A DNA stretch of 14,926 bases from an uncultured archaeon (lineage in GTDB: Archaea > Asgardarchaeota > Lokiarchaeia > Sigyniarchaeales > SOKP01): assembly GCA_964447495.1 (NCBI GenBank), contig CAYUTF010000082.1:1-14926 (forward strand), in the 5' to 3' direction. The notes under the pieces are model-generated. The model saw nothing but the letters and a program-made list of their open reading frames with translations, was not told the origin of the DNA and did no database searches. A program made the translations under genes and the position numbers. Below, piece after piece: positions 1 through 14,926 of the stretch (position 1 is its first letter; each line of letters begins with the position of its first letter).

Positions 1-299
1 TTATTTTTTTGAGTTAAATTTTCAAGTTTTAAATCTAAATCTTTAACATTAATAGTATTAACGTGATAAATTCTATTCATATCTTGAGGTCTATTGAAAC
101 CTTTTTTCCCTAAAATCCAATCAGGATCTGGAAAACCTAAACGCATCTGCTTTAAGTAGTAGGATTTCATACTCTTCTTTAACTGAGTTGTTTTTCCTCT
201 CCCAGCTCTTTGCCCTGTTTTCCGATGCTGTCCGACCTTTCCATATCCAATTGTTCGGGTTCCTCTTTTCTTTTGTTTTTTACTTTTAAATTTTCTCAT
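1..299 (-). CDS. rpl15: 50S ribosomal protein uL15 (3' end outside window)
   Basis: Not in ORF track. Manual translation from ATG at 299: MRKFKSKKQKKRGTRTIGYGKVGQHRKTGQRAGRG...LGKKGFNRP...NTINVKDLD, which matches archaeal L15 motifs. SD-like AGGTGA upstream. Expected position after L30. Confidence 0.93.
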   Translation of the reverse strand, partial: MRKFKSKKQKKRGTRTIGYGKVGQHRKTGQRAGRGKTTQLKKSMKSYYLKQMRLGFPDPDWILGKKGFNRPQDMNRIYHVNTINVKDLDLKLENLTQKN

Positions 300-320
300 A
301 ATCTACGTTCACCTTTCTGT

Positions 321-857
321 TTAGAGCATTTTATGGATAAGTTCATTAATATAATTTTCAACATATCCCAGAGTTCCCCCTTCTTTGAAATGTTTTTTAA
401 TGTTTCCTAAATGACCTTTTTTAGGAGGATGTAATCTAAATACGGGTTTAATTTTGGAGATATCCTTTGATCTATATTGAACTTCTCCTTTAATTAATGC
501 TTTAGCAAGAGTTTTAATATCATTATATTTAGTTAAATTTTTAACTTGTTCATCTGTGAGTGGTTTATTCCCCTCAACTCTACCTCTAACTCGAAGGAGT
601 CTAATTAGTGTTTTCTCATCAATTTCTCCATAAGCAATATAATCTTTACATTTTTTAAGCATTCCAATATAACTTTCTTTACCCCAGATTAGAACACCAT
701 GATTTACTTTATGCATTCTGAGCATTTTAATTGTATCAAGAATTTTCCTGTTCATTCCAGGCGAACCTCTAATCCGAATTGCAAAGTATAAAACAGGAGG
801 CTTAATTTCTTTTACTTTTGATTTTTTTTTCATAATAATTTCATTTTCTGCCATCAT
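321..857 (-). CDS. rpl30: 50S ribosomal protein uL30 (long archaeal/eukaryotic L7 type)
   Basis: Motifs AIRIRG, YIAYGEID, FRLHPPKKG, GGTLGY...INELIHKML. Start more likely ATG 857 or 854 after SD-like GGTG than the GTG at 866. Confidence 0.95.
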   Translation of the reverse strand: MMAENEIIMKKKSKVKEIKPPVLYFAIRIRGSPGMNRKILDTIKMLRMHKVNHGVLIWGKESYIGMLKKCKDYIAYGEIDEKTLIRLLRVRGRVEGNKPLTDEQVKNLTKYNDIKTLAKALIKGEVQYRSKDISKIKPVFRLHPPKKGHLGNIKKHFKEGGTLGYVENYINELIHKML

Positions 858-873
858 ATACACCACTCATTTT

Positions 874-1488
874 TTATAAGTTGAAATTATATTTATGTGC
901 ATTTTTTAGAGCATTAACTGTCGCTTTAACTAAATTCTCACTAGTTCTTGTGTCTCCAAAGGTTTTACTCCAAATATCTTCTATTCCTGCTAATTTTAAT
1001 ACTTGCTTTACTTTATCCGCGCAAGCTAAGCCTACTCCTGCTGGTGCGGGAATAAGGCGAATCCTAACTGATCCACATTTACCTTCAACTTTAAACGGAA
1101 TACTATGTGTATGACCACATCCACATTCTCCACTACCACATCCTCTTAAAACTGGAATAACAGATAGTTTTGCTCTATCAATTGCTTTTCTTATGGCAGG
1201 TCCAACTTCTCGACTTTTTGCGGATCCAACTCCGATGAAACCATCTGCCCCAACAAGAACTACCGCCTTGAATTTCGATCTCTGACCGCTTGCAGTCATT
1301 TGTTGAACCATTTTTATGGTTACTACATCTTCTTTAAGTTGTGGCAAAAGTACATCAATGATTTCTTTTTCTTTAACAACTAAATTGTTAGCGAATATCT
1401 TATCTAAAGTGATTAATCCTTGTTGCACTAATTCACCAAGTTTTGTCCTTGGAACCCAAGTTTCTTCCATATTTCTACTTCGACTCAT
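874..1488 (-). CDS. rps5: 30S ribosomal protein uS5
   Basis: WVPRTKLGELV, GCGSGECGCG..HSIPFKVEGKCGSV, LIPAPAGVGL; position between L18 and L30. Confidence 0.97.
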   Translation of the reverse strand: MSRSRNMEETWVPRTKLGELVQQGLITLDKIFANNLVVKEKEIIDVLLPQLKEDVVTIKMVQQMTASGQRSKFKAVVLVGADGFIGVGSAKSREVGPAIRKAIDRAKLSVIPVLRGCGSGECGCGHTHSIPFKVEGKCGSVRIRLIPAPAGVGLACADKVKQVLKLAGIEDIWSKTFGDTRTSENLVKATVNALKNAHKYNFNL

Positions 1489-1503
1489 TTAAGCTCATCT
1501 TTT

Positions 1504-2097
1504 TTAAGCATTATTTTCAATAGTTTTTAATGTAGTTGAAAATAGTTGTCCCATTTTTAAGGGGTCTATCTTCTTCTTTTTTAAATATCCTGAGAATATT
1601 TGCTGATACTTTTCAGGATCTTCACTTTTCAAATATTTTGCATAATTCTCTATATGAGAACCATTAATTCTATCTTCAAAATTTTCTGGAAAAAATTCCT
1701 CCCGATATGGAATATCTATTCCTGCTTCTATTAATCCTTTAAATGCTGCTAAAACCCTATTGTGATGGTAAAAAATCCCTAAATCTAGTATTGCTTGCGT
1801 GATATTTTGTTTTTTAGCGCGTAATCCTGCTAGATAACCTGTTAAATATGCAGCAGGAATGTTTCCCGTGTTTGCTTTCCATCCAAAATTCTTAATTAAT
1901 TCTCTAGAAAAGGCAGAAACCAATATTTTATCTCCACCTGATTTTGATTCAATTAATTGAATAATAATATGGTTATTTGAAGCCCTAATAACGGCTCTTA
2001 TAGATTTTGATTTTAAAAGCTTTAACCTTCGATGATAATTTGTTTTTCCTTCGACTCTTCTTCGTAATGGTCTTCTATATCGTGGTCCTTTCGCCAT
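1504..2097 (-). CDS. rpl18: 50S ribosomal protein uL18
   Basis: MAKGPRYRRPLRRRVEGKTNYHRRLKLL, NIPAAYLTGYLAG, ILDLG. Confidence 0.97.
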   Translation of the reverse strand: MAKGPRYRRPLRRRVEGKTNYHRRLKLLKSKSIRAVIRASNNHIIIQLIESKSGGDKILVSAFSRELIKNFGWKANTGNIPAAYLTGYLAGLRAKKQNITQAILDLGIFYHHNRVLAAFKGLIEAGIDIPYREEFFPENFEDRINGSHIENYAKYLKSEDPEKYQQIFSGYLKKKKIDPLKMGQLFSTTLKTIENNA

Positions 2098-2099
2098 TT

Positions 2100-2555
2100 C
2101 TATCTTCCTCTTTTTAATAGTTCTTTTTCTTTTATATATCTATTCAATTGAGAGACACTATTGAACATTCCACCCTTTACGTTTTTATACAATTTTCTGT
2201 AATTTGCTACGGATATTTGTTTTCGATCTCTGAGCTTCTTTAATTCACGTCTTTGTGCACGAACTCTCCTCATCCATGCTTTTTTCTTAGGAGTTCTTGC
2301 TGTTTTTTTCCCTTTTCTTTTACCTAAACCTCTGGCAAGACCTCTTTTCTTTCTTTGATGACGTAAATTCTTCCTAAATTTTGATATGCCTTTCTTATAG
2401 TTTTTCTTAATTATCCCGTCTTTTACTAAACTACGAATATCTTCACGAGTAATCGCCATTTTTATTTCCTCTATTAAATATGGATCGAAAAAAACTCTAT
2501 TTTCTCCACATTTTAATATTTCGGCTGCCATCCTTCTCTGTGCTTTTAAACTCAT
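2100..2555 (-). CDS. rpl19e: 50S ribosomal protein eL19
   Basis: LKAQRRMAAEILKCGENRVFFDP, AITREDIR, GKRKGKKTAR, WMRRVRAQR. Confidence 0.97.
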   Translation of the reverse strand: MSLKAQRRMAAEILKCGENRVFFDPYLIEEIKMAITREDIRSLVKDGIIKKNYKKGISKFRKNLRHQRKKRGLARGLGKRKGKKTARTPKKKAWMRRVRAQRRELKKLRDRKQISVANYRKLYKNVKGGMFNSVSQLNRYIKEKELLKRGR

Positions 2556-2575
2556 TTTTAACCACTAAATCTTAA

Positions 2576-3067
2576 TTAATCATCTAAATCAAGAGAATCT
2601 TCTAAATCATCTGCATCTATGTATTCATCTTCTTCCAAATCTTCTAATGGTGATTTAATCATAGATTCAAGACTCTCTATTTCTTTTTGTGATATACCTA
2701 TATTAAGTATTTTAAATCCTCTATTTTGAGCATAATCAACTAAAAATATTCTTTTTCTTGTACCTAAATTACCAGAAATTTTAATTGCATGCTTTTTATT
2801 ATTCAATCCTTTAAGTTCATTTATTGAAGATACCCACACTTCTTCATATCCAGACGGGTGTAACCCTCTGACCTTTTTTGGGCTTCTATACCCTACAGTG
2901 GGAGATTTCACGCCAGATTTTTCCTTCATTCTTGTCTGGGAATCGATCCCTCTTGCCTTCCGCCAAGGATCCTTTACTCTTTTATATCTCCAAGATTCAA
3001 CTCGTCTAAATGCAGGCTTCTTCTTTTTCTTATTTTTTCTTATTTCCATTAATCTTTTCTGTTCCAT
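2576..3067 (-). CDS. rpl32e: 50S ribosomal protein eL32 with acidic C-terminal tail
   Basis: KPAFRRVESWRYKRV, WRKARGIDS, VGYRSPKKVRGLHPSGY. Confidence 0.96.
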   Translation of the reverse strand: MEQKRLMEIRKNKKKKKPAFRRVESWRYKRVKDPWRKARGIDSQTRMKEKSGVKSPTVGYRSPKKVRGLHPSGYEEVWVSSINELKGLNNKKHAIKISGNLGTRKRIFLVDYAQNRGFKILNIGISQKEIESLESMIKSPLEDLEEDEYIDADDLEDSLDLDD

Positions 3068-3084
3068 CGATGTTAAACCTCACT

Positions 3085-3663
3085 TTATTTTATTTGCCAA
3101 AGAATTTGATCTCCAGTTTGTATCCTATATAGGTAAATTCCATCTTGAAATACTCGCGGATCTTTTTTTCTAATTCTACAACATCTTTTAAGATTGGCAG
3201 CAGTTTGGCCCAACTCTTCTTTATCAGGACCAGTTAAAATTACATCGTCGCTTTCTATTTTTACTTCTACATTTTCTAAATAATTGGTGATCCTTGGAGC
3301 TCTCTCTCCTAAAAAGTTGACTACATGAAGTTCTTTCTTTTCAGGCTTGATTTCAACATTACATGGAAAGTGAGAATAACAAACTTTGCAGAAATAATGA
3401 TAGTTAGTCTGTACTCCAATTATTAAATTTTTTATGATATTTAAAATTGTATTTGCTAAAGCTAATGTTCCGCTTTTTGGAAAACTTGTTGAAATAATAA
3501 TTTTTTTATCTTTTAATGCTATAGAAATTCCCCTAGCATGAGAAAAGTCTTTTGTAATACTCCCATTTGGACCCTTAACAGTGACATGGTGATTTTCTGT
3601 TAAAATGACCACAACTCCTTCCGGAACGTCTAATTCTTCTTTAAAAAATGCTATTTTTACCAT
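3085..3663 (-). CDS. rpl6: 50S ribosomal protein uL6
   Basis: VTVKGPNG, YSHFP, NFLGERAPR, GQTAANL, KDPRVFQDGIY. Confidence 0.97.
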   Translation of the reverse strand: MVKIAFFKEELDVPEGVVVILTENHHVTVKGPNGSITKDFSHARGISIALKDKKIIISTSFPKSGTLALANTILNIIKNLIIGVQTNYHYFCKVCYSHFPCNVEIKPEKKELHVVNFLGERAPRITNYLENVEVKIESDDVILTGPDKEELGQTAANLKRCCRIRKKDPRVFQDGIYLYRIQTGDQILWQIK

Positions 3664-3684
3664 TTTATTCTACCATTGTAATTA

Positions 3685-4068
3685 TTAATATACATAACAT
3701 AAGGTTTGGCCACCAATATTCCTCTCTTCTGCTTCGTTCATAGACATAACCCCTTGATTAGTGGACATAATTATAATACCTAAACCTGGAGCAGGCAACA
3801 ATTTCCTTTCAAGAGCTTCAAATTGAGAGACGTAGTAACTATTTCTAATTAACCCTTTTGCTTCATTTATTTTTCCTAGAAGAGCAATTTTGAATTTACC
3901 TTGCCTTCCATCATCATATCTTTCAAATTCACCAACATATGCATTACTTTGTAGTATTCGCAGAACTCTCTGAAGTAAATTTGAGGCGGGGCTTATTATT
4001 ACCTCTTTCTTTCTTGCCATCTCAGCATTCTTCAACATATTCATGCTATCAGCAATTGTATTAGCCAT
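3685..4068 (-). CDS. rps8: 30S ribosomal protein uS8
   Basis: YVGEFERYDDGRQGKFKIALLGKIN, LPAPGLGIIIMSTNQGVMS, GGQTLCYVY. Confidence 0.96.
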   Translation of the reverse strand: MANTIADSMNMLKNAEMARKKEVIISPASNLLQRVLRILQSNAYVGEFERYDDGRQGKFKIALLGKINEAKGLIRNSYYVSQFEALERKLLPAPGLGIIIMSTNQGVMSMNEAEERNIGGQTLCYVY

Positions 4069-4153
4069 TTTTTATTATTCCTCTAACAAATTTTATTCTA
4101 CTTTTAATTCAATTCCTAATTTTTTATCGTAAGATTTTGAATATTTAATCTAA

Positions 4154-4303
4154 TTAATCAAACCTATGAAAGCCTATGTCTTTACCAATTTCATAAAAAC
4201 ATCTTCGACAGATATATAGCCCATATCTTCTAATAATACCTCTATGAGTTCCACACCTTCTGCAGACTCTCTGTCCTTTTCCTAAGTTTTTTCCTTGTGG
4301 CAT
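4154..4303 (-). CDS. rps14: 30S ribosomal protein uS14 (zinc-binding type), 49 aa
   Basis: Not in ORF track. Manual translation [49 protein letters not shown], with two CxxC pairs; canonical position between L5 and S8. Confidence 0.96.
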
Positions 4304-4321
4304 AATTTTCAACTTTTTTAA

Positions 4322-4915
4322 TTAAATGTAATCTAACTCTATTTTTTCTACAATATCAACTCCAAAATTCTTCCTGAGAAAATACTGAGCTTCATCACGA
4401 GATACATAATGATGCAATGGGACTTTAGTTTTTTTTATTCTACGATATCTTACTCTCATCCCTGGTCTTGTGATTCTTCCTACAACATTAAGTCCCCAGA
4501 TTCCAATCTCAGTTTCATAATCAATTCCTGGAATGGTTATATGTTCCGTTATTCCGAAACCAAAATTTCCAAAATTATCAAAACTTTTTCTTAAAATTTT
4601 GTTATTAGTCACAATCAGCAGCCTTTTCAATAATTTCTCTGCTTCTGCGCCTCTCACAGTTACCATAGTTCCAATTGGTCTACCTTTACGTAAATTAAAC
4701 TCTTTCACGTTTTTCTTAGAGAGGGTTTTGACTGGAGATTTACCTGATATGGTTTGTAATACCGTAAAAGCTCTTTCTAATTCTTCTCCTCCAGACCCAA
4801 CGCCAATATTTAAAACTATTTTCTCTAAATAAGGCTTCTTCATAGGATTTTTCCATATTTCAATATATTCTTTCTCTTGTAGCTTTAAAGCCTTTTTTTT
4901 AGCCTTAGTAGACAT
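4322..4915 (-). CDS. rpl5: 50S ribosomal protein uL5
   Basis: NPMKKPYLEKIVLNIGVG, FNLRKGRPIGTMVTVRG, SFDNFGNFGFGITEHI. Confidence 0.97.
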   Translation of the reverse strand: MSTKAKKKALKLQEKEYIEIWKNPMKKPYLEKIVLNIGVGSGGEELERAFTVLQTISGKSPVKTLSKKNVKEFNLRKGRPIGTMVTVRGAEAEKLLKRLLIVTNNKILRKSFDNFGNFGFGITEHITIPGIDYETEIGIWGLNVVGRITRPGMRVRYRRIKKTKVPLHHYVSRDEAQYFLRKNFGVDIVEKIELDYI

Positions 4916-4942
4916 TTCATCTTCACGTTTTATGTTATTTTA

Positions 4943-5695
4943 TTAATCTATATTGGGAATACTTATTTCGAACTGATCCTCTCCTATTATGAAAGTATAA
5001 TCATATAATGTCTCTGTGAGTTCAGAATTACGTTGTATAGAGACGGTACTAGCTTTAGGACCAAATCGTTTTAATACTTTTGTTATCTTTCCAACTTGTC
5101 CGATATTTTTACCAGACATAATAATTGCTAAATTTCCTTCCTTAAATCTCAAAGTTTTTAGAATTTCTTGCTCTGGAATGCTAATCTTTAAAACATCCAT
5201 ACGTTTATAGATATCTTCTTTAGGATTTTTTGGATCTTTAATATTTATTAATAAATTTCTACCATCATGTAAATTTAATTGAATATGCCCCCCCTTTATC
5301 GTCGTTTTTCCTGCAATTCTACATAATTTAAAATTACTCTCTTCTTCTGAAATCTTGTGTAGGATTAATCCATAGTGAGAATCTGGTAATATTCGATAAA
5401 ATTGATTTATATTTGATACACTAAGAACGTCCATTAATCCAACAGGGAATGCTGTATCTTTAATTACTTTTCCATCAACTTTGAAATATCCCTGACCGAT
5501 GAGCTTTTTTGCTTCTCGATGTGTATCGACTATTTTTAATAAATCTCTTACGATATGTAGTAAAGGTAAGCAGAATCGATTGGGATGTGGTCCTGGAGAT
5601 GGTTTAATAAAAAATGTTCCATGTTTCCTTTTAATTTGCAAGAACTTAGGGGTATTTAACCTTTTAAGAGATTTTGTTCCACCATGTCTCGTCAT
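4943..5695 (-). CDS. rps4e: 30S ribosomal protein eS4
   Basis: LKRLNTP, KPSPGPH, VDGKV..D..FPVGLMDV, GGHIQLNLHDGRN. Confidence 0.97.
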   Translation of the reverse strand: MTRHGGTKSLKRLNTPKFLQIKRKHGTFFIKPSPGPHPNRFCLPLLHIVRDLLKIVDTHREAKKLIGQGYFKVDGKVIKDTAFPVGLMDVLSVSNINQFYRILPDSHYGLILHKISEEESNFKLCRIAGKTTIKGGHIQLNLHDGRNLLINIKDPKNPKEDIYKRMDVLKISIPEQEILKTLRFKEGNLAIIMSGKNIGQVGKITKVLKRFGPKASTVSIQRNSELTETLYDYTFIIGEDQFEISIPNID

Positions 5696-6127
5696 TTATT
5701 TTTCAGCCTCTTCTTTTTGTTTTTTAGGACCCGTTAATAAATCTTCTTTAACTCCAAATAACGCTTTTCTTTCTATCAGACTTGCTCTCCATGGATCCAT
5801 CTTTTTTTCTTTTATAAATTTTGTGATAATAAGATTCGATATATGAATTGAGGGATTAAATTCAGTCCCATCTGATTTTTCAAATTTTGCCTCTTTGATT
5901 CTTGCTCTCTGATTTTTTGTGATTTCGATAACTTCTCCCTCAAAATCTTTGAATTCCCCTTTGATGATTCGCACATCATCACCTACCCTAAGTGGTAGAT
6001 TTTTTATTCCGTATTCTTCACGGACGAAATCAGCTACTCTTGTTGATAATAAATTTGATCTTTGATGATTTTTGTAATTAAACAATGCTTTTCTTTGCTT
6101 TCTTGGTTTTTTTGATTCAACTCTCAT
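5696..6127 (-). CDS. rpl24: 50S ribosomal protein uL24
   Basis: SKKPRKQRKALFN, LPLRVGDDVRIIKGEFK (KOW), IHISNLIITK. Confidence 0.96.
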   Translation of the reverse strand: MRVESKKPRKQRKALFNYKNHQRSNLLSTRVADFVREEYGIKNLPLRVGDDVRIIKGEFKDFEGEVIEITKNQRARIKEAKFEKSDGTEFNPSIHISNLIITKFIKEKKMDPWRASLIERKALFGVKEDLLTGPKKQKEEAEK

Positions 6128-6151
6128 ATTTCATTTCCTCTCTATTTATTT

Positions 6152-6577
6152 TTAAATTATTAATGATGATATTGAAGCTAACCTTGGAAATAGTTCAGCA
6201 GCTTCCCTACAAATAGGACCCCTTATTTCGGTACCTTTAGGTTCCCCTTCTTTGGTGATTAAAACACCAGCATTATCTTCAAAACACAAACGTGTTCCAT
6301 CAACACGTCTGTAGATCATTTTTTGTCTTACAATAACTGCTTTCATAATGGTACCGCGTAATTCAGGCTTGCCTTTTTTAACAGTGACAGAACAAACAGA
6401 ACCCACTGTAGCTTTTGGCAACCTATTTAAGCGCGTCTTAGAATGATCTACGTTAATAATTTCTGCGATTTTTGCTCCAGAATTATCAGTTATGAAAATT
6501 CTTGACCCATTTTGTAATCCATAACTAGTTCTTCCCGTGGCAAGGGTCTTTCGACCCAATTTTCTTCTTGTTCCCAT
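6152..6577 (-). CDS. rpl14: 50S ribosomal protein uL14
   Basis: DNSGAK, VTVKKGKPELR, FEDNAGV, KGTEIRGPICREAAE. Confidence 0.97.
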   Translation of the reverse strand: MGTRRKLGRKTLATGRTSYGLQNGSRIFITDNSGAKIAEIINVDHSKTRLNRLPKATVGSVCSVTVKKGKPELRGTIMKAVIVRQKMIYRRVDGTRLCFEDNAGVLITKEGEPKGTEIRGPICREAAELFPRLASISSLII

Positions 6578-6928
6578 TTAAATCGCACCGCTTACTATTT
6601 TTTCTAACACTATGAAAGCTTTAGTCTTGGAAAGTTTTCTACTTTCCCCTACTCTTACCAAATCTCCAACATAGATCTCATTTTTTAAACATTCAGGTAA
6701 ATGACATGAAAGGCGAGAATTCCTTCTCTCATATCGCTGGTATTTTCTAATAAATTGAACATAATCCTGTCTGATTACAACAGTATTTTTTGACTTTTTA
6801 CTTACCACTAAACCTTGAGTTATTTTGCCTCTTATTCTTGTAGATCCATGGAAAGGACAATCCTTATCATTACATTCTCTACTCTTAGGAGGACTTACTC
6901 CTGGAATACCAATATTACGAACACTCAT
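6578..6928 (-). CDS. rps17: 30S ribosomal protein uS17
   Basis: RNIGIPGV.PP, CNDKDCPFHG, KYQRYERR, GESRKLSKTKAF. Confidence 0.97.
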   Translation of the reverse strand: MSVRNIGIPGVSPPKSRECNDKDCPFHGSTRIRGKITQGLVVSKKSKNTVVIRQDYVQFIRKYQRYERRNSRLSCHLPECLKNEIYVGDLVRVGESRKLSKTKAFIVLEKIVSGAI

Positions 6929-6929
6929 T

Positions 6930-7223
6930 TTATTTCTTCAACCACTTTTTCTTTTTCAAACTTCTTAATCTATTTTCAGGTCGACCTACTATTTTTGACC
7001 CATCAAATTCTAATATATATTTATTAAGTTTAAGCCGAAAGATATATTCATTTTTAATATATTTTTTAATTTGATTTTCTTTCTGAATAACAACTAAATT
7101 TCTTGTTTCATCTATGATAGTACCTTCTAGTAAAAATTCTGTATCTTTAGGTTTTGATTTGTGTTTTAATAATACTTCAAACCCAATTAAATCATGATAA
7201 ATTAAATATTCTGGACTAATCAT
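6930..7223 (-). CDS. rnp1: Ribonuclease P protein component 1 (Rpp29/Pop4)
   Basis: HDLIG, GTIIDETRN, DGSKIVGRPENRL; canonical position between L29 and S17; ATGA overlap with the L29 stop. Confidence 0.93.
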   Translation of the reverse strand: MISPEYLIYHDLIGFEVLLKHKSKPKDTEFLLEGTIIDETRNLVVIQKENQIKKYIKNEYIFRLKLNKYILEFDGSKIVGRPENRLRSLKKKKWLKK

Positions 7224-7420
7224 CGCTTCTCCTCATTCTTTACTGTTAAAATTCGAGCTATTTGCTTTCTTAGTAATTTTGCTTTAGCAGGATTATCTGA
7301 AAGTCCGCCACCAGTTTGTTGACTATATAACATCATTAACTCTTCTCTTAATGTTATTAATGTTCTTTCTCTTTCTCTCTCATCCATTTCTCTAATTTTT
7401 TTTGCGGTAATTACATCCAT
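7220..7420 (-). CDS. rpl29: 50S ribosomal protein uL29
   Basis: AKKIREM...LREEL...NPAKAKLLRKQIARILTVKNE. Confidence 0.95.
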   Translation of the reverse strand: MDVITAKKIREMDERERERTLITLREELMMLYSQQTGGGLSDNPAKAKLLRKQIARILTVKNEEKR

Positions 7421-7442
7421 ATCATATCTCCCCTATTCATAT

Positions 7443-8216
7443 CTATTTTTCGATCTTTTCATTTTCTGGTTCTAATGATATTTCAGAGATATCTTCCTCA
7501 TCAACTTCATCAAGTATTTGTTTAGCTTCTTCAGTTATTTCTCGTTCTTCTTCCTCAATGATGTATTCTGCTCTGGTTTTTGCAGATTTCGCTTCAGCTT
7601 GAGCTTGAGCTTGGGATAATAACTCATAATTTATTTTAACCTCATCTCCCATTTTTACATCTGCATGCATAATTTTCACAATTATTCCTAATGTTCCACT
7701 TTTCTGAATACATTGAGCAATGCCTTTATCTACGCCTTCTTGTGCTGGTTGTCCACTCTTTGACATCGTGCCTGCTCTAAAAATCTGGGTTCTGGCTCTC
7801 TGTGATGTGACTTTTCCAGATATGATAATCTCGACACCTTTAGCACCCGCATCCATCACTTTTCTTAAAATGTAATATCCTGCCCTTCTGTAATGACGAC
7901 CGCGGTCTAATGAATACGCTAATCTTTCAGCCATAATCTGGGCATCTAAATCTGGATTAGCAACCTCTTCTACTTCTATTTGAGGAAGCTCTAAACCATA
8001 TCTTTCCTGTAGGATGTCAGTAATTTCTTGAATCCTTTTTCCCCCCTTTCCTATCACAAGTCCTGGACGACTTGTCTTTAAAGTAATCCTCACTCCAAGT
8101 GGGGTTTTTTGGATATCAACACCCGCAAATCCGGCTCTGACTAACTCTGAACGTAAGTATTCATTAATTTGCATTAGTTTTATACCTTGTTCGATAAAAT
8201 GTTTGGCTAGTGGCAT
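7443..8216 (-). CDS. rps3: 30S ribosomal protein uS3 with acidic C-terminal extension
   Basis: KH domain RPGLVIGKGGKRI, NPDLDAQIMAE, AGAKGVEIIISGK, GIIVKIM. Confidence 0.97.
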   Translation of the reverse strand: MPLAKHFIEQGIKLMQINEYLRSELVRAGFAGVDIQKTPLGVRITLKTSRPGLVIGKGGKRIQEITDILQERYGLELPQIEVEEVANPDLDAQIMAERLAYSLDRGRHYRRAGYYILRKVMDAGAKGVEIIISGKVTSQRARTQIFRAGTMSKSGQPAQEGVDKGIAQCIQKSGTLGIIVKIMHADVKMGDEVKINYELLSQAQAQAEAKSAKTRAEYIIEEEEREITEEAKQILDEVDEEDISEISLEPENEKIEK

Positions 8217-8270
8217 TTATTTCAACCTAATTTATGAATTTTTTAATTATACTATTTTATATTGATTAAT

Positions 8271-8750
8271 TTAACTTGGAACTTCATATATAACAATTTC
8301 AACATGACTTAAATGTCGGTATTTTGCTGAGGATCTTCCATGAGCGCGTTGAATATATCTTTTGATAATTCTTCCCCGATGAGTGGCGGCATGAATGATT
8401 CTACAGAGTTCAATATCTAATCCCTTATATTCTGCATTCGACTCTACCGCAGATAGCACCTCAAAAATACGAGCTGCAGCTTTTTGCGGATAACGTCCTG
8501 CATACCATTTAAATTGTTTTAAATCTTTTTTATGAGCTTGTTTTTTCTTGTGTCGTCTGTAGGGTACTGATTGGTTCATTTGAATAACTTTTTCTAAATA
8601 AGTTTTAGCTTGTTCTACTTTCATACCCTTAATTACCGCACAAATTTCTCGACAATCTTTTGGTTTAATTCTTAAATCCCTTCCTGATGCTTTCGCTATT
8701 CTATCAGCATCATATTTTTGCTCAATAAACGAATATCCCCAGTTTGGCAT
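8271..8750 (-). CDS. rpl22: 50S ribosomal protein uL22
   Basis: AKASGRDLRI, EICAVIKGM, GRYPQKAA, NAEYKGLD, RAHGRSS, HVEIV. Confidence 0.97.
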   Translation of the reverse strand: MPNWGYSFIEQKYDADRIAKASGRDLRIKPKDCREICAVIKGMKVEQAKTYLEKVIQMNQSVPYRRHKKKQAHKKDLKQFKWYAGRYPQKAAARIFEVLSAVESNAEYKGLDIELCRIIHAATHRGRIIKRYIQRAHGRSSAKYRHLSHVEIVIYEVPS

Positions 8751-8785
8751 TTATCATCATCTTGTTTTTATAATTATAATATTGA

Positions 8786-9340
8786 TTATTTTAATGGAAC
8801 ATATTTACTACTTCTTGTTGCTCCAATACCAGGAGAACCATGTTGTACACGTTTGCGTGTTAAAGAAAATTCACCTAAATAATGCCCAATCATCTCAGGC
8901 ATAATTTCTACTATCTCAAAACTTCTTCCGTTGTAAACTCCAATTTTTAATCCCACCATCTCCGGAAAGATAATCATATCTCTCACATGAGTTCGTGTGA
9001 GAAGATCTTTACCTCTTTTTTTTGCTCTGTAAGCCCGTCTTAACCTCTCGAGTAATTTCTTCTGTCTAGGTGGTAAACCTCTTCTTAAAGAACGTCGTGC
9101 TCTTGCTGGAAGTAATTGAATAAACTCATCCATATTCATCTTCTTTAAATCTTCTAATGTGAAACCCCGAAAATGGAATTTTAAGCGATCCCTTTCTTTA
9201 TCAAGATCGATTTCGTCTTCGATTTCCTCTTCTTCCTCTTCTTCAATTTCTTCCTCGATCTCTTTTTCTATCTCTTCGGTAGGTTCTTCAGATTCAGGTT
9301 TTTCTTGTTCATCCTCATTAGGTTCTTCATTCGGAGACAT
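8786..9340 (-). CDS. rps19: 30S ribosomal protein uS19 with ~45-aa acidic N-terminal extension
   Basis: [69 protein letters not shown]. Confidence 0.97.
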
Positions 9341-9574
9341 TTTTGCACCAATCTATTTGTTCCAATTAATATTTTATGTTATTTTTTTCGATTATATTTA
9401 TTACGTGTAATGATATTAGTCATCTATTAAATTTTAATTTTATTAAAACAAGAGAGGTGAAAACCATAAACTTTAAAAGGTTAGGTTATGAGGGTCAGAG
9501 ATTTACTAAAAGATCTCTTAATATCCAATTTTATCGTCTTAATTGACCAATCTTATCAATAGATTAAAACTCAG

Positions 9575-10249
9575 TTATTTGTAATTATTGGGATTATAAA
9601 TCCTTTCAATATCTTCTTCATCAAAATTGCCACTCCATTTTTCTTTAAGGATGATGAAATCTTTTGGATTCATATTTGGGTTAATTATGGAGTGATATTT
9701 CATTTTTGAATTCGTAAATTCAGTGCCATTTTTTACAAAATAATAAACTCGATTATTACTTATTATTATTGGATTTCCTCTTATGATTTCCCACACTTCG
9801 GATCTGAATTTATGAATTTGAAGTGAAAGTCCCATCTCAGGTTTTATGAAAATAAGGTTATATTCGGGGTAAGTAAATTTTATACTATACCATTTAGCTA
9901 AGATATCAATATAACCTTGTGGAACGTTAAAATTCTTAACGAATTCCTCAGGCTTGAAATTAATTTTTTCAGAATGCTCGTATTTATATGGATTATATAT
10001 TATCTTATGTTTTGATACATCCTGATCGTATTTGATATTTATTTGTGCTGCCCCAATATTAATTATCATATAATACTCCTTAGGGCTGACTTTTAAATTC
10101 AACTTCTTTACACGCGTGGTAATAACTGAAGTATTATTAATAATCAGAATTTTATTTGAGCTAATACAATCAATTGAAATCATCAATTCTTGAGAGTAAT
10201 TCTTTCTAAGATAAGTGCCCCTTCCAGATACTAATATTTCTTTAGACAC
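9575..10249 (-). CDS. Cupin-domain protein (C-terminal domain resembles type II mannose-6-phosphate isomerase cupin)
   Basis: Cupin motif 1 GLSLQIHKFRSEVWEIIRG and motif 2 ...KYHSIINP; GTG start 11 nt after the ribokinase stop. Confidence 0.7.
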   Translation of the reverse strand: MSKEILVSGRGTYLRKNYSQELMISIDCISSNKILIINNTSVITTRVKKLNLKVSPKEYYMIINIGAAQINIKYDQDVSKHKIIYNPYKYEHSEKINFKPEEFVKNFNVPQGYIDILAKWYSIKFTYPEYNLIFIKPEMGLSLQIHKFRSEVWEIIRGNPIIISNNRVYYFVKNGTEFTNSKMKYHSIINPNMNPKDFIILKEKWSGNFDEEDIERIYNPNNYK

Positions 10250-10260
10250 GATATTATAAC

Positions 10261-11232
10261 CTATTTGATTTTAATTTCGTTAATTTTAGTAAACCTATCT
10301 TGAATTTCCATAGCAACCGGCATGGATTCTTGGGCACCTTTTCTTGTAACAGCAATAGAAGCGGCAGCAGTGGCATATTTTACGGCATTCACTAAAGTCT
10401 CACCTTGAGCTAGTTTACTTGCTAAAACACCATTAAAGCAATCTCCAGCACCAACAGTATCAATTGCTTTTACTTTATAAGCTGGAATCTTGGTTATCGT
10501 TTCTGGATTTGATTGATATATCATTGAGCCTTTACTTCCCATAGTAGTTATTACTGAATTTATTCCTAATTTTGAAATATCCCTTGAAGCCTGAATAATT
10601 TGTTGATCTTCAGAGGATATTAGCTTTTCTAAATTCAATAATGAATGAAGGTGGAAAAGCTCTCCTTCATTAGGAATAATGATATCTATTAGATGAAATA
10701 AATCATGAGGGATAGGTTTTAAAGGAGCAGGGTTTAATATTTTTGTAACTTTTCCCTTAGATGCAATTTGAAAGATTTTTTGAATTGTTTCAATTGGAAT
10801 CTCCATCTGAACGATAATAGTGGTCGCATTTTTAACGATACTTTCATTTTTTTCTATTTCTTGCGGGCTTAATTTAACGTTGGCACCTGGAGCAACGCTT
10901 ATCATATTCTCACCATTTTCATCAATCATAATAAACGCAATTCCGCTCGCTTCTGTATCATCTCTGATGATATGTTCAACATTTATACCTTCTTTTTGTA
11001 ATTGAGTGAGCATCTGATCCCCAAATGAATCTTTACCAATTTTTGCTATAAAAATTGTACTCATGCCCGATCTTATGGATGCAACTGCTTGATTCGCACC
11101 TTTTCCTCCCATAAATTGTTTGAATGTTCCTCCAGTAACTGTTTCACCCTTTTTAGGTAAACACTGCGAATAGATATTCATATCTATATTGCTAGAGCCT
11201 ATGATAAGTACGTAGGGTTCTCTACTTGACAT
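10261..11232 (-). CDS. rbsK: Ribokinase (PfkB family)
   Basis: GSSNIDM, P..GETV, GGKGANQAVA, GENMISVAPGAN, LNPAP, PNEGE, DTVGAGDCFNG. Confidence 0.93.
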   Translation of the reverse strand: MSSREPYVLIIGSSNIDMNIYSQCLPKKGETVTGGTFKQFMGGKGANQAVASIRSGMSTIFIAKIGKDSFGDQMLTQLQKEGINVEHIIRDDTEASGIAFIMIDENGENMISVAPGANVKLSPQEIEKNESIVKNATTIIVQMEIPIETIQKIFQIASKGKVTKILNPAPLKPIPHDLFHLIDIIIPNEGELFHLHSLLNLEKLISSEDQQIIQASRDISKLGINSVITTMGSKGSMIYQSNPETITKIPAYKVKAIDTVGAGDCFNGVLASKLAQGETLVNAVKYATAAASIAVTRKGAQESMPVAMEIQDRFTKINEIKIK

Positions 11233-11493
11233 AATTTTTGCATCAAATCTTACTCTAAAATCATTTTATTTTCTATAAACTAATTATGGATCATTTCACT
11301 TAAAATCAATTAATTCTAATTTATGACAATAAATAATGACGAAAAATGATTTAAGCTTCTTTTTAAATTTAATAGTCTCTTTACTTAATTAAAAAGCAAA
11401 TGGTTTTAATTCAATCCTATTTTAACAAAAAATATTACATAAATTCCATTTATTTAAAATAAATCTATAAAAAATGTAAAAGAGGTAAGTACT

Positions 11494-11879
11494 TTGGCAA
11501 AAGATAAAATTATCGGACTCATCGTCATGATTCTCGGCATCTTTATCGCTATTGTTTACACCATGGGCAGTGTTTTGGATCTTTTCTTCGAAACACTTGG
11601 TGGAAACGCCAATTGGGATCAACTTCTCATGATTTTCGGTCATGATTGGCTTGATTGGAGACTTTTTGTGGTTCTACCCTTATGGTTAATTGTAATTTTA
11701 ATTTCCATTATCGCCATTTGGATTGGATACAGCATGCTTACAACGTTCAAGCATTTCGCTGAACCTAAGCTATACGCCTGCTCCAGTCCCACTCGAAGTT
11801 AAAAGATGTGTTTCACATTTTTATCGATTAGTTGGAAGAGGAGCTTGCTGCTGAAGAGGAATCTGAAGAATCAAGTTAA
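11494..11879 (+). CDS. Small two-TM membrane protein with acidic tail; predicted spliced CDS join(11494..11741,11773..11798,11830..11879), 107 aa
   Basis: TTG start with SD-like GAGGT at about 11482-11486. Two hydrophobic helices. Removing two 31-nt BHB inserts gives ...WIGYSMLTTPAPVPLEELEEELAAEEESEESS*, followed directly by a T-tract. The unspliced ORF stops at 11802 with an implausible tail. Confidence 0.85.
11742..11772 (+). other. Putative BHB intron 1 (31 nt) in protein-coding gene
   Basis: Central helix GCUU(11736-39)/AAGC(11767-70); bulges AC^A(11740-42) and UA^U(11771-73); internal hairpin GUUC-A-AGC...GCU-GAAC; ligation gives CTT AC|T ACG CCT (L-T-T-P). Confidence 0.78.
11799..11829 (+). 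other. Putative BHB intron 2 (31 nt) in protein-coding gene
   Basis: Central helix UCGA(11793-96)/UCGA(11824-27); bulges AG^U(11797-99) and UU^A(11828-30); internal stem UAAAA-G-AUGUG/CACAUUUUUA; outer stem UCCCAC/GUUGGA with one mismatch; ligation gives CTC GAA G|AG TTG GAA (L-E-E-L-E). Confidence 0.83.
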
Positions 11880-11888
11880 ATAAAATAC

Positions 11889-11905
11889 TTTTTTTTTTTC
11901 TTTTT
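11889..11905 (+). terminator. Oligo-T archaeal terminator
   Basis: T11-C-T5 run starting 10 nt after the spliced-frame stop at 11879. Confidence 0.6.
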
Positions 11906-11975
11906 AAACTCACTTTTTAATTTTTAATTAGATGTAAACCATTTCATAGAATTTGATATCGTATCTAATCAGATA

Positions 11976-12716
11976 TTAACCTATGTTATAAGATTTTACT
12001 CTGAGTGTATTTAGGTCAATGTTAAGTAATATTTTATTAGTAAGTTCTTTGGAATTAAGCTTTAATGGGGTGGTGCTAACAAAAATTGTGTCTTTATCTT
12101 TTTGTATGAATAGGGTATGGTGCCTTCCGTTAAAGTTAGTATTATGATACGTTATAACATTGCATTCCTGTGCGTTGAATAGAAAAGCATTTGCCCCGGC
12201 ACCTAATTCTAATACTTGAAATATTTCTTTCAAGGCGTTTTGTAAATTAAATCCTTCTTTTAGTTTATCTATAATATAGCATAGATATTTCCTTGTATCT
12301 AAATTAGTTTCCTTGCGTATTTTTTCTAAATCAGGGTAGCTTAATTTGGGGAAAGAAGGGTTCTTAATTATTCCATTATGAACGATTAAATATTTTTCGC
12401 CAATATTTATTGGATGAACATTTTCAAGACTTCTTTTCCAAGGCATAGTTTTTCTCGCATGAACAACTAGGAATCGTGTTTTAATTTCTGCTAATGATTT
12501 CCAATCTGCTTTATAAATTGGATGAATATCGCGTTTTATAATAAGATGATTATTAGAATCTTCAGGGATGTAAGCAAAACCCCAGCCTAAACTATGATGA
12601 CCAAACAGATTATATTTTCGAAGGTATTGCCAATGACAGGTTGCGATAAACTTTTTTAAAATTGGGAAGTCAACTTGAGAAGATTCATTCGAGCATTGAA
12701 GAAACATTCTACACAT
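11976..12716 (-). CDS. Stand-alone class II glutamine amidotransferase (Ntn hydrolase, YafJ/EgtC-like)
   Basis: N-terminal M-C-R nucleophile, H..GWGFAY, HARK, NVHP, HNG, downstream DT motif. Confidence 0.85.
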   Translation of the reverse strand: MCRMFLQCSNESSQVDFPILKKFIATCHWQYLRKYNLFGHHSLGWGFAYIPEDSNNHLIIKRDIHPIYKADWKSLAEIKTRFLVVHARKTMPWKRSLENVHPINIGEKYLIVHNGIIKNPSFPKLSYPDLEKIRKETNLDTRKYLCYIIDKLKEGFNLQNALKEIFQVLELGAGANAFLFNAQECNVITYHNTNFNGRHHTLFIQKDKDTIFVSTTPLKLNSKELTNKILLNIDLNTLRVKSYNIG

Positions 12717-12758
12717 GGCTAAACCTCATAATAATATTGAAATAAGTATGTTTTTTAA

Positions 12759-13877
12759 TTAAGAATCCTCTATAAAGTAGGCGATAATTGATCCATCCTC
12801 ATGACTTATTATTAACAATTGAGTTTTTGGCTCATATATAATATCATTTATAGAAGAAGTATGAACAATATTTGACTTTATTGTGCCATTTTTTTCATCT
12901 ATGATAATCAACTCCCCTTGAGTTGTTCCAATAGCTATATTGTTTTGTTTTCCCGTTTGAAATCGATAAATAACTTCAATATTCTTATTATTTAATTCCC
13001 ACTCAATTTCTATATTTTTATTGATGCAAATTAATTTTGATGTAAAATTTATATCTTGAATGGGAATAGACTGGTCCATATAATCAAAGGAGTAAGTACT
13101 TATTAAGATATTTTCATTTATAAGTGTAGGAAAGGAGAGACTCTTCCAGACATAATCATCAAATTCCATAGTTTTAATTTCGTTATGAGATACTTTATCA
13201 ATAAAATGCAGTTGATTATCATCGCCACCACAAACGATTAATAGACCTTTATTCGAATTAATATAGTCAATAAAACGAACCTTATCTGAAAATTGTTTAA
13301 ACCATAGCAAGTTTCCATTCACATTTTCGAATATTCTAATGGTTCCATCATTTCCACAAGCGATTATCTCTTTTGTACTTTTAACACGTTTATCTGTCCA
13401 AATTTTTGCATCTTCAATGCCATCTTTGAAAATTTGACCCCAGATTAAATTTCCAGAGTTATTATCCAAAACTCTAAGAGTTTTGTCAAGAGAGTAAGCA
13501 ATAATTTCCAGATTATCATCATTATTTATATCATTAATTCTTATTCCACTTATAGAAGAACCAAATTGATGAGCCCATAAAGGCTTTAAAATTAATTCAG
13601 GAGTGATTTGAAATACTCTTAATAATCCATCTAATCCACCAAGAATTAACTCTTGCTTCCCATTCTTATTGATATCTGAAATTTCAAAATTCCAAATTGG
13701 TGAATATTCAGTGATTTGTTCTTCAATTACTAATTTACTATTTAAATCTAAGATTAAAATTTTCCCCGATTTTGTAGATATAAATAGTTTTTTAGTTTGC
13801 TCTTTTGCACAAGCACTCAATTTTGCTCTGAGAATTGACTCCTTATAATCGAAAGTCCATTTTTTTTTCAACTGCAT
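12759..13877 (-). CDS. Beta-propeller protein (WD40/PQQ-like blades with FG-GAP-like loops)
   Basis: Repeated ~45-aa blades: DINKNGKQELILGGLDGLLRVF, DINNDDNLEIIAYSLDKTLRVLD..GNLIW, ACGNDGTIRIF..GNLLW, GGDDNQLHFID. Confidence 0.8.
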   Translation of the reverse strand: MQLKKKWTFDYKESILRAKLSACAKEQTKKLFISTKSGKILILDLNSKLVIEEQITEYSPIWNFEISDINKNGKQELILGGLDGLLRVFQITPELILKPLWAHQFGSSISGIRINDINNDDNLEIIAYSLDKTLRVLDNNSGNLIWGQIFKDGIEDAKIWTDKRVKSTKEIIACGNDGTIRIFENVNGNLLWFKQFSDKVRFIDYINSNKGLLIVCGGDDNQLHFIDKVSHNEIKTMEFDDYVWKSLSFPTLINENILISTYSFDYMDQSIPIQDINFTSKLICINKNIEIEWELNNKNIEVIYRFQTGKQNNIAIGTTQGELIIIDEKNGTIKSNIVHTSSINDIIYEPKTQLLIISHEDGSIIAYFIEDS

Positions 13878-14020
13878 GTTATTAAGTTATAAATATATCA
13901 TGATTTGTATATCTTTTAATAATTAATAGAAGATTTCAATTGAAATAATATTATATAATAAGTTGATTTAATTACTTTTAATATCTAAATTTATTAAAAA
14001 CTAGTAAATAGAGATAAAAT

Positions 14021-14482
14021 ATGTCTGAACAGAGAAAAATCGACTTTTTTTCTGCAATTGTGCTTATATTGAGTTTTATCGCACTAGTCATGCTCCTGAT
14101 CGGTCCATTTGGAAGTCTATATACAGGTTACTCTTGGAATGGAAATTCATGCCTTTATTGTTTTGGTTATTCCACAGTAGTGGACTATATAATGCAAGTC
14201 TTAATATTGATTTTGTTAATCCTTCAGATAGCAATGGCAATTAATAATTTGCTCCCAAAGTCGTTCATTCCGGAAGATTCACCAGCTGCTTTTCTTAGAA
14301 CCTCTATGTTTGGAATTATTTCATCAATTTTAATTTGGAGTTTTGCGATTATAGGACTTATCTCTTTCGGTGTAACTTATGATTATACTGATTGGTGGAT
14401 GGATATTGGCTTCTATGGACCTGTCGTTGCCGGGATAATAAATATGATCTTGTACATTTTAAAACATCTAAATAAGTTATAA
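14021..14482 (+). CDS. Four-TM membrane protein with CxxC in first loop
   Basis: 153-aa ORF with four hydrophobic segments, SCLYC in loop 1, followed by a T-tract. Confidence 0.75.
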   Translation: MSEQRKIDFFSAIVLILSFIALVMLLIGPFGSLYTGYSWNGNSCLYCFGYSTVVDYIMQVLILILLILQIAMAINNLLPKSFIPEDSPAAFLRTSMFGIISSILIWSFAIIGLISFGVTYDYTDWWMDIGFYGPVVAGIINMILYILKHLNKL

Positions 14483-14483
14483 A

Positions 14484-14505
14484 TTTCTTTTTTTTTATTT
14501 TTTTT
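14484..14505 (+). terminator. Oligo-T archaeal terminator
   Basis: Long T runs immediately after the stop at 14482. Confidence 0.55.
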
Positions 14506-14539
14506 ATGGAAAATTAATTTAAAAACTAATCAAGATAAG

Positions 14540-14554
14540 AACGAAATTTATATT
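14540..14554 (+). promoter_or_regulatory. Candidate BRE/TATA promoter for the ferredoxin gene
   Basis: Purine-rich AACGAAA followed by TTTATATT about 70 nt upstream of the ATG; SD GGAG at 14611-14614. AT-rich background limits certainty. Confidence 0.4.
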
Positions 14555-14620
14555 TTTTATATTATTCTCCCTATTAAGGATAATTATTTTATCTATAATT
14601 CTTAAAAAAAGGAGAAAAAT

Positions 14621-14818
14621 ATGAGCTTCGGAATCGAAATTGATATGGATGCTTGTACTGGATGTGGGACTTGCTATGAAGTTTGTCCAAGCGAATGTTT
14701 TGGAGAACCTGAAGGCGGTAAGGTGCATGTTCTTGAAGAGAACAGAGAAGATTGTGTAGGTTGCAGAGCTTGCGAAACCCAATGTCCAGAAGAGGCAATA
14801 ACAATCATTGAGGAGTAA
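14621..14818 (+). CDS. 2x[4Fe-4S] ferredoxin
   Basis: Two complete motifs CTGCGTCYEVCP and CVGCRACETQCP; 65 aa, acidic; SD GGAG. Confidence 0.95.
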   Translation: MSFGIEIDMDACTGCGTCYEVCPSECFGEPEGGKVHVLEENREDCVGCRACETQCPEEAITIIEE

Positions 14819-14845
14819 TCTCCACTATTTTCCTTAAAGATTATC

Positions 14846-14864
14846 TTTTTTTTTTTATTTTTTT
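14846..14864 (+). terminator. Oligo-T archaeal terminator
   Basis: T11-A-T7 run about 27 nt after the ferredoxin stop. Confidence 0.55.
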
Positions 14865-14926
14865 ATTGAGTAACAGATTTAATAAAACCAATCTAAGAAA
14901 AGATCGTGAAATCTGCCTTTTACGAA

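Follow-up and report, generated by a model that had tools for sequence, protein, structure and literature searches.

Short bulge-helix-bulge inserts in protein genes of a Lokiarchaeial genus as probable messenger RNA introns

How can a small gene of an uncultured Lokiarchaeial archaeon encode a conserved protein when two 31-nt inserts break its reading frame? The gene lies on the plus strand of a 14,926-nt stretch of DNA (hereafter, the window: contig CAYUTF010000082.1, positions 1 to 14,926, assembly GCA_964447495.1), and the original prediction, made from its letters, placed at 11742-11772 the first of two introns bounded by a motif of the bulge-helix-bulge (BHB) type, the substrate of the splicing endonuclease EndA. 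Homology-defined borders, covariation and register all support that intron. Our comparisons indicate that in all likelihood the inserts are BHB introns spliced by EndA and the RNA ligase RtcB, members of a set spread patchily over protein genes of the genus, and that these Asgard archaea very probably splice several messenger RNAs. The parts of the gene, in window coordinates, are as follows.

11494..11741, plus strand: exon 1 of a small membrane-protein gene, which starts with TTG and holds 82 codons plus two bases of the Thr83 codon, from the open reading frame (ORF) and its translation.
11732..11735, plus strand: 5' strand GCAU of the outer helix (h), pairing with 11774-11777 (G-C, C-G, A/C mismatch, U-A).
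11736..11739, plus strand: exon strand GCUU of the central 4-bp helix (H), with its partner at 11767-11770.
11740..11742, plus strand: 5' bulge ACA, with a predicted cut at 11741/11742; homology permits register 0 or +1.
11742..11772, plus strand: intron 1, 31 nt, absent in 34 of 41 genus loci, with the same site occupied in 7; its removal restores ...SMLTTPAPVPLE.
11743..11766, plus strand: inner hairpin (h'), made up of a stem of 6 positions (C/C mismatch included), one bulged A, a second stem of 3 bp and an AUUUC loop.
11767..11770, plus strand: intron strand AAGC of the central helix H, supported by covariation in relatives.
11771..11773, plus strand: 3' bulge UAU, with a predicted cut at 11772/11773 from the sequence and the register test.
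11773..11798, plus strand: exon 2, a 26-nt micro-exon, T + ACG CCT GCT CCA GTC CCA CTC GAA + G = (T)TPAPVPLE(E), from the frame-2 translation.
11799..11829, plus strand: intron 2, 31 nt, with the central helix UCGA 11793-11796 pairing with UCGA 11824-11827, bulges AGU 11797-11799 and UUA 11828-11830, and a 9-bp inner hairpin.
11830..11879, plus strand: exon 3, (E)LEEELAAEEESEESS, with the stop TAA at 11877-11879, from the frame-3 translation.

Read without splicing, the gene is a 102-aa ORF that stops at 11800-11802, and its parts lie in different frames: ...SMLT ends exon 1 in frame 1, TPAPVPLE is in frame 2 and ELEEELAAEEESEESS* is in frame 3. Once 11742-11772 and 11799-11829 are taken out, the product has 107 aa, is colinear with intact homologues (103-108 aa) and is predicted to read MLTTPAPVPLEELEEEL across the junction region, with the junction 11741|11773 yielding CTT ACT ACG CCT. 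All the elements that had been listed for intron 1, namely the core, the bulges, the stems, the ACG repeats (11743-45 and 11774-76) and this junction, proved to be present in the letters. The core consists of GCUU/AAGC with bulges ACA and UAU, and the inner stem runs in the order A-U, C/C, GUUC/GAAC, one bulged A and AGC/GCU around the AUUUC loop. The original prediction had supposed that the mismatched flanks might lower splicing efficiency; the motif is in fact close to the canonical BHB. The minimum free energy (MFE) of intron 1 is -9.9 kcal/mol, and the BHB structure itself, at -8.8, lies within 1.1 kcal/mol of it. A group I or group II self-splicing intron was rejected on size, the insert having only 31 nt against a ribozyme core of hundreds, and an Rfam search returned no match at E <= 1 apart from one chance match to a long non-coding RNA.

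The borders of the insert were set by relatives. Using the 3.8-Mb genome of the window (G000), its closest relative (G041) and further species of the genus, we found an orthologue in 41 of 42 species genomes, with 69-90% identity over residues 1-84. At 34 of the 41 loci the gene continues uninterrupted through ...GYSMLTTPAPVPLEELEEELAAEE... / ...IWIGYSMLTTPAPVPLEELEEELAAEE... in one frame, and intron 1 occupies the other 7 (31 nt in G000, G013, G044, G042, G008 and G016; 32 nt in G010); the second insert is present in two (G000 and G013). With metagenome contigs included, intron 1 is known in 12 sequence versions and 13 distinct contexts; the 79 contigs parsed of 80 loci listed comprise 12 with intron 1 and one with intron 2, and they overlap the genome set, so that they are not independent of it. 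For both inserts the predicted cuts agree with the homology-defined borders within 1 nt. One side observation concerns locus L116 (DATKTW010000178.1), titled Nanopelagicaceae bacterium, which carries the Loki-type gene with a 32-nt intron-1 variant identical to that of G010; the record is probably a mis-binned or mislabelled contig.

Pairing across the insert is conserved by compensatory change, the lack of which in relatives carrying the insert had been named as a result that would count against a BHB intron. The central helix is fully paired (4/4) in 13/13 contexts, as GCUU/AAGC, GCUU/AAGU, GUUG/CAAC or GUUG/CGAU; a CTT Leu codon in the exon goes with AAGC or AAGU on the intron strand, and a TTG codon with CAAC or CGAU. 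Across the 7 aligned carriers, 88.4% of cells are paired, against 22.6-45.3% in controls with the 3' partners displaced by 1-3 columns, and 7 of 16 pairs change on both sides; 0/500 shuffles reach either the paired fraction or the covariation score, a count that is not a probability, as the carrier set is small and its sequences are related. The inner hairpin pairs in 84.1% of cells over 9 positions, with both-side changes in 5 of 9 pairs among carriers, and the outer helix in 90.5% over its 3 counted pairs, its C-G pair being replaced by U-A in 2 of 7 aligned carriers. RNAalifold recovered the central and inner helices unaided. The third outer pair joins the wobble bases of the Ser and Thr codons, as C-G in 7 contexts, U-A in 3 and A-U in 1, which makes 11 paired contexts of 13; where the intron is missing, these two positions are complementary in 44 of 129 contexts, a contrast that kinship inflates.

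Register and selection point the same way. When both cuts were shifted jointly, GYSMLTTPAPV resulted in 13/13 contexts from register 0, in which each cut follows the second bulge base, and from register +1, but from no other. The 24-nt core of exon 2 varies at 9 sites among 16 distinct carrier segments, and every change is synonymous, which indicates that the shifted downstream frame is translated in carriers. The exon-3 motif is likewise invariant among intact homologues, as is the IWIGYSMLTTPAPVPLEELEEELAAE stretch in an alignment of 12 diverse homologues from the genus.

The second insert, 26 nt downstream of the first, has the same layout, with a UCGA/UCGA core and bulges AGU and UUA, and its MFE fold includes the BHB motif. 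Its site is also filled in G013, by 31 nt, and in two further Promethearchaeota of the 80 public genome records listed, by 30-nt in-frame inserts. These make four versions in the same frame with unrelated hairpins.

The enzymes required for such splicing are encoded in the genome. Two genes match PF01974: a 201-aa ORF (L021 1168-1770), best aligned to the catalytic alpha subunit of A. pernix, keeps the Tyr, His and Lys (this His is Ala in the mutant entry aligned) together with the K-P-R (K44/R46) of the Crenarchaea-specific (L1) loop, and a 205-aa ORF (L022 1210-1824), the beta subunit, has no catalytic His. RtcB was found with 561 bits. Lys44 of that loop is given, in the part of the source available, as an RNA recognition site conferring broad specificity (PMC3241643), and an excerpt of another paper reports Asgard archaea with (alpha-beta)2 EndA bearing the L1 loop (PMC5829648). 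The EndA of this genome is thus predicted to be a two-subunit (alpha-beta)2 enzyme of relaxed, broad specificity, which is the type that the original prediction had thought the weak flanking helices might require.

From the insert and its borders, the co-varying BHB, the purifying selection on the exons and the enzyme genes, we infer cleavage and ligation. The transcript would fold so that exon GCUU pairs with intron AAGC, leaving a 3-nt bulge on each strand; (alpha-beta)2 EndA with its broad-specificity loop would cut both bulges, at 11741|11742 and 11772|11773, and RtcB would ligate the exons. Intron 2 (11799-11829) would be removed likewise, and the mature messenger RNA would encode the 107-aa protein whose gene is uninterrupted in most relatives.

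The shape of the motif is in itself no proof. The 3.8-Mb genome contains 93,994 matches to a relaxed BHB motif (1.6e-4 per position and length), so that BHB shape alone does not exceed chance, and the evidence comes from comparison: what goes beyond chance is that the motif falls exactly on inserts defined independently by intron-less homologues, at both inserts of the gene, together with the co-varying helices and the cut registers that restore the protein.

Several observations weigh against splicing and should be set beside this evidence. The thermodynamic signal is weak, with z = -0.80 for the intron 1 fold, 42 of 200 shuffles folding equally well, and z = -1.56 for intron 2. The A/C mismatch of the outer helix is invariant, and the outer helix is nearly absent in the 32-nt variants, which, having lost h, are a relaxed BHB form. 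Among the inserts in other genes described below, the central helices of two, those in the GHKL ATPase and acetyl-CoA synthetase genes, use two G-U pairs each, and that of the 38-nt insert of G041 has only 3 pairs and a C/A mismatch. Structure-only genome scans with ORF fusion gave no enrichment over frame-shifted or wrong-length controls (1736 vs 1729, 97 vs 108, 473 vs 491); the motif alone therefore cannot identify introns, and the scans say nothing about prevalence. Among the 79 metagenome loci parsed of 80 listed, none was a spliced-form counterpart nearly identical to G000, and all genomes compared are metagenome-assembled. The position of the cut within each bulge rests on the rule, which we take to hold here, that EndA cuts after the second bulge base; in the excerpts available, the papers state one cut per bulge and give no finer position. 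As for transcripts, five metatranscriptome runs contain 6-21% of sampled words.

Could the ribosome, rather than EndA, deal with the inserts? Translational recoding would have it bypass the 31 nt, or shift frame at the end of the insert, while the RNA stays intact; in the window, ACG 11743-45 and ACG 11774-76 could indeed serve as take-off and landing sites and give MLTT-PAPVP, frame 1 is open through the insert, and the stops do not bar a +1 slip at the 3' end of the insert. In 12 of 13 contexts, nevertheless, ACA is followed by a codon other than Thr, and a hop there would leave one Thr against the two of every intact homologue examined, and a frameshift would add about 10 residues to a stretch that is invariant in 12 diverse homologues. 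The 32-nt variants would call for one recoding event of their own and intron 2 for another, and four other inserts of the genome have the same layout with weaker helices. Nor does recoding account for a 4-bp helix and its pair of 3-nt bulges lying precisely on the borders of introns 1 and 2, or for an exon codon that co-varies with bases at the opposite end of the insert. On these grounds recoding is very unlikely. Scarcely credible, in our judgement, is a dead gene, in which neutral hairpin insertions leave the carriers with no protein or only a shortened one (102 aa in the window): a 102-aa frame is indeed open on read-through, and inserts of non-BHB type do exist in the genome, such as a 26-nt one near the end of a gene on contig C4, yet TPAPVPLE...ELEEELAAEE is kept in shifted frames with synonymous change only (16 distinct carrier segments), the diverged insert persists in at least four clades, and the other interrupted genes are conserved enzymes with 78-95% identity on both sides of the insert.

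The third alternative keeps EndA cleavage and doubts the rejoining, the insert then being a negative regulator, or a switch between truncated and full-length isoforms, and not a constitutive intron. A regulatory role has been proposed for the cbf5 intron, according to the portion available of that paper (PMC2738675), removal of a BHB intron from a 5' untranslated region (UTR) affects expression in Haloferax, as an excerpt of the report states (PMC7714728), and the unspliced message has its own stop at 11800-11802. Against this stand the flips between presence and absence in the locus pairs L018 vs L029 and L027 vs L011, whose flanks are 93-100% identical and which better fit a dispensable element, and the purifying selection on exons 2-3, which requires a ligated product; we consider regulation without efficient rejoining improbable. 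Removal of both inserts by EndA and RtcB thus remains the reading that we prefer.

The host protein itself has 2-3 predicted membrane spans and an acidic tail. It found no NCBIfam match and no sequence relative in PDB, and no family reached threshold, the best matches, all below it, being PIG-P (20-21 bits, cut-off 39.3), DPM2 and Yip1. Some features of the locus may be recorded here. The TTG start at window 11494 lies 8 nt downstream of GAGGT; ATG stands there in most relatives, and in four loci the start position reads I (ATA- or ATT-type codons). An oligo-T run at window ~11889-11905 begins about ten bases past the exon-3 stop, none follows the stop of the unspliced 102-aa ORF, and intact relatives have the same run after their stop.

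Is the gene alone in carrying such inserts? We compared 1,423,118 bases of G041 with G000 using stop-to-stop ORFs both ways, which aligned 392,471 aa (G041 ORFs on G000) and 411,796 aa (reverse) and recovered the target gene as a positive control. Twelve candidates were obtained, one of them the positive control, and four frame-breaking inserts were accepted, three of them additional ones in G000 and the fourth in G041. One more G000 insert came from a genome scan with a homologue check, bringing the total of that genome to 6 BHB-type inserts in 5 genes. The accepted inserts, all on the minus strand, are the following.

C41:20898-20926 (L287 1499-1527), minus strand: 29-nt insert in a GHKL ATPase gene (~1,100 aa), just before the EFLDNALDA box; H GCAU/GUGU, bulges ACA and AAG.
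C50:6743-6774 (L399), minus strand: 32-nt insert in an acetyl-CoA synthetase gene, after GYY and before the YTGD motif; H UAUU/GAUG, bulges ACA and AAU.
C2:44647-44678 (L392), minus strand: 32-nt insert in a ChlI/VWA AAA+ gene, within VGSMNPE|EGELRPQ; a clean BHB with H CCGA/UCGG, bulges AGA and AAA.
C22:2930-2960 (L401 1502-1532), minus strand: 31-nt insert in an ABC ATPase gene, in the Walker B / D-loop stretch LDEPT|TGVD; H GACU/AGUU, bulge ACA.
C104 of G041 (L371), between 13767 and 13734, minus strand: 38-nt insert within KVGALLA|LGHQLEAIFYY, in the orthologue of a 160-aa ORF on C95 of G000.

These sites vary among genomes as the window gene does. The GHKL site is split in 5 of 41 genomes with a match (G000, G043, G047, G021 and G023), with 93.3% of cells paired against 9.8-43.3% when slid; a second apparent split of that gene, at residues ~100-135, was rejected as a divergent acidic linker without an insert. 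The acetyl-CoA synthetase insert also occurs in G018, with compensatory hairpin changes, and 22 genomes are intact. The ChlI/VWA AAA+ gene is split in 7 genomes and intact in 31, with 93.5% of cells paired vs 18-59% when slid, and 3 of 7 carriers have U-A in place of a C-G pair; G000, G053 and G046 have the ABC ATPase insert, which G041 and G013 lack. The 38-nt insert of G041 has a 9-bp outer helix and the loop AUAUC. Sequence features recur: the exon reads ...UAC | A at the 5' cut in 4 of the 6 G000 introns, YCGA-AG|N is common to intron 2 and the AAA+ intron, and several inserts have the bulge ACA and an AUUUC-type loop in common.

Rejected candidates of the G041 comparison were C4 (26 nt, without a BHB), C28, C31 and an L262/C2 overlap artefact, and C115 (17 nt), a 125-nt tail on C133 and the poly-Ser tail of L348 stayed outside the accepted set; C5:19372-19415 and C39:12871-12903, candidates of the BHB scans with ORF fusion, were dismissed as introns as well, the gene ending there in all relatives. 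The C4 insert, near 36962 on the minus strand of G000, removes the last 9 codons of a 199-aa-type gene; its remnant HGNRVRFS* is conserved relative to G041 (3 synonymous changes, 1 replacement), no convincing BHB was found in the insert, and it could be either a relaxed-motif intron or a recent truncation. Searches for further copies of intron 1 yielded little: its covariance model R1 found only its own locus in G000, blastn-short gave matches of 15 nt or less only, and a 13-14-nt motif has 3 exact matches in G000, in the window, the C41 intron and C7, and 16 with one mismatch vs 27 for a control. The C7 match lies antisense to an intact ORF and was discarded as an intron.

How have the introns come to be so scattered? 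On the tree of the neighbouring pfkB gene the 7 carriers of intron 1 need 7 changes, at least 5 of them forced by well-supported branches, and 5 changes suffice on the tree of the gene's own exons. The two-intron genome G013 and the intron-less G014 are sisters, with branch lengths of 0.013 and 0.006. Presence and absence flip within the pairs L018/L029 and L027/L011, which are 93-100% identical over 3 kb, while their 60-nt windows adjoining the intron are only 76-86% identical (14-24% local divergence). The carriers cluster on the 127 nt of exon adjoining the intron (3 changes, 0/500 shuffles as low) and not on the distal 173 nt of exon (7 changes). A long co-conversion tract was rejected as the cause: when the BHB-forming exon bases were dropped, the clustering was mostly gone (5 changes, 38/500), which traces it to the motif more than to any long tract of conversion. 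The diverged insert persists in at least four clades of the genus. The intron is thus, by these trees and alignments, of sufficient age for divergence in several clades, and its precise gain or loss has happened several times.

Inserts of 29-38 nt with a BHB thus occur in several protein genes of the genus and are often gained or lost, and some look related in sequence. One tentative and rather doubtful extension is that intron 1 is one copy of a proliferating family of ~30-nt BHB mini-introns colonising protein genes in this Lokiarchaeial genus. The UAC|A or YCGA-AG|N contexts, the bulge ACA and the succession of stem, 1-nt bulge, stem and 5-nt AUUUC-type loop would fit such a family, as would the coming and going of inserts between near-identical genomes and the nearly identical 3' arm AUUUC(G)CUGAACCU in one gene pair, the GHKL insert having the loop and arm AUUUC-CUGAACCU, almost the same as AUUUCGCUGAACCU of intron 1. 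If this were true, introns would spread on messenger RNAs by an endonuclease-free route, for example through EndA/RtcB reversal or recombination with spliced or unspliced copies, and such spread would operate in the closest archaeal relatives of eukaryotes.

Other observations made along the way concern the surroundings. The window has ~31% GC and carries an archaeal ribosomal-protein operon on the minus strand. Also on the minus strand, window 12759-13877 encodes a 372-aa beta-propeller protein with weak matches to many eukaryote-type WD40/BBS propeller models (BBS7 beta-propeller 43 bits, cut-off 27). Elsewhere in the assembly, scan stretches on C205 (~1,550-2,270) are strikingly G+C-rich compared with the 31% of the window, and C7 carries, at ~56-59 kb, an ATP-dependent DNA-ligase-like ORF and a ParB-like ORF; both contigs may be foreign, viral or contaminant.

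What is known of such splicing in archaeal messenger RNAs is little. The cbf5 pre-mRNA intron was reportedly described by Watanabe in 2002 and Yoshinari in 2006, and the splicing of archaeal messenger RNA by the tRNA-splicing machinery had rested on cbf5 of Crenarchaeota and one 5' UTR case. A 2020 paper states, in the portion available, that cbf5 is the only additional BHB intron reported, and adds the 5' UTR case (PMC7714728); a 2025 structural paper cites only cbf5 papers for mRNA in its accessible part (PMC12397907). A 2026 preprint on Asgard introns treats tRNA genes only, using 'mRNA' 0 times and 'protein-coding' once, for neighbouring genes. Our full-text literature search, with subscription journals and supplements outside it, found no report of BHB introns in Asgard protein genes. 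The same mechanism is now implied for at least five genes of one Asgard genome, including acetyl-CoA synthetase and the ABC and AAA+ ATPases, with introns whose presence varies between close relatives and which resemble one another in part of their sequence. Gene calling on Asgard metagenome-assembled genomes will cut such genes short or break them up. The loci also offer a natural system for the arrival and departure of BHB introns, a question left open for Asgard tRNA introns, and bear on interrupted protein genes and protein-only messenger RNA splicing in the archaeal lineage nearest to eukaryotes.

The nearest known counterpart is the coding-region BHB intron of crenarchaeotal cbf5, for which an excerpt of the survey gives 16-44 bp, some introns in frame, and inferred gains and losses (PMC2738675). 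Both are short BHB introns in a coding frame (16-44 bp there, 29-38 nt here) of which many copies shift the frame and some are multiples of three, both are too short for a homing enzyme, and both are patchily distributed, with inferred gains or losses in hosts with hetero-oligomeric EndA. Unlike cbf5, our inserts occur in an Asgard (Promethearchaeota) lineage and in other host genes, several per genome (6 introns in 5 genes of G000); one tiny gene has two introns around a 26-nt micro-exon, and the 5' context UAC|A, the bulge ACA and a loop of AUUUC type recur in several introns. Splicing was experimentally shown for cbf5, whereas the introns described here are known from sequence. Membership in the cbf5 intron family was rejected: the host gene encodes a small membrane protein, not a cbf5/TruB-type pseudouridine synthase, and the cbf5/TruB-type gene of G000 (C15:28557-28898, plus strand) is a single open, uninterrupted 349-aa frame.

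Further known systems show other likenesses. Phage T4 gene 60 is a case of translational bypassing, and it too has a short untranslated gap with a hairpin inside an ORF; matched codons that restore the conserved protein are found here in 1 of 13 contexts (the window only), and BHB geometry is foreign to gene 60. The HAC1, XBP1 and bZIP60 messenger RNAs undergo unconventional cytoplasmic splicing by IRE1 and a tRNA ligase, and IRE1-type splicing is mentioned in the available part of PMC13149111. The resemblance lies in a 20-30-nt structure-defined intron, a protein endonuclease, a tRNA ligase (RtcB in animals) and a frame shift that alters the C-terminal part; the nuclease is unrelated, the twin stem-loops are not a BHB, and the process is stress-regulated, so this is an analogy and not membership. 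The BHB intron of HVO_1309 in Haloferax volcanii likewise makes a messenger RNA the substrate of the splicing endonuclease, but, as far as the excerpt goes, in an untranslated leader, with a homodimeric enzyme and as a single case (PMC7714728). With the Asgard tRNA introns of the 2026 preprint our inserts share the same enzymes and repeated gains with no known arrival route; they differ from them in that the substrate here is messenger RNA coding sequence, where the exon half of the motif is built from codons and co-varies via synonymous sites.

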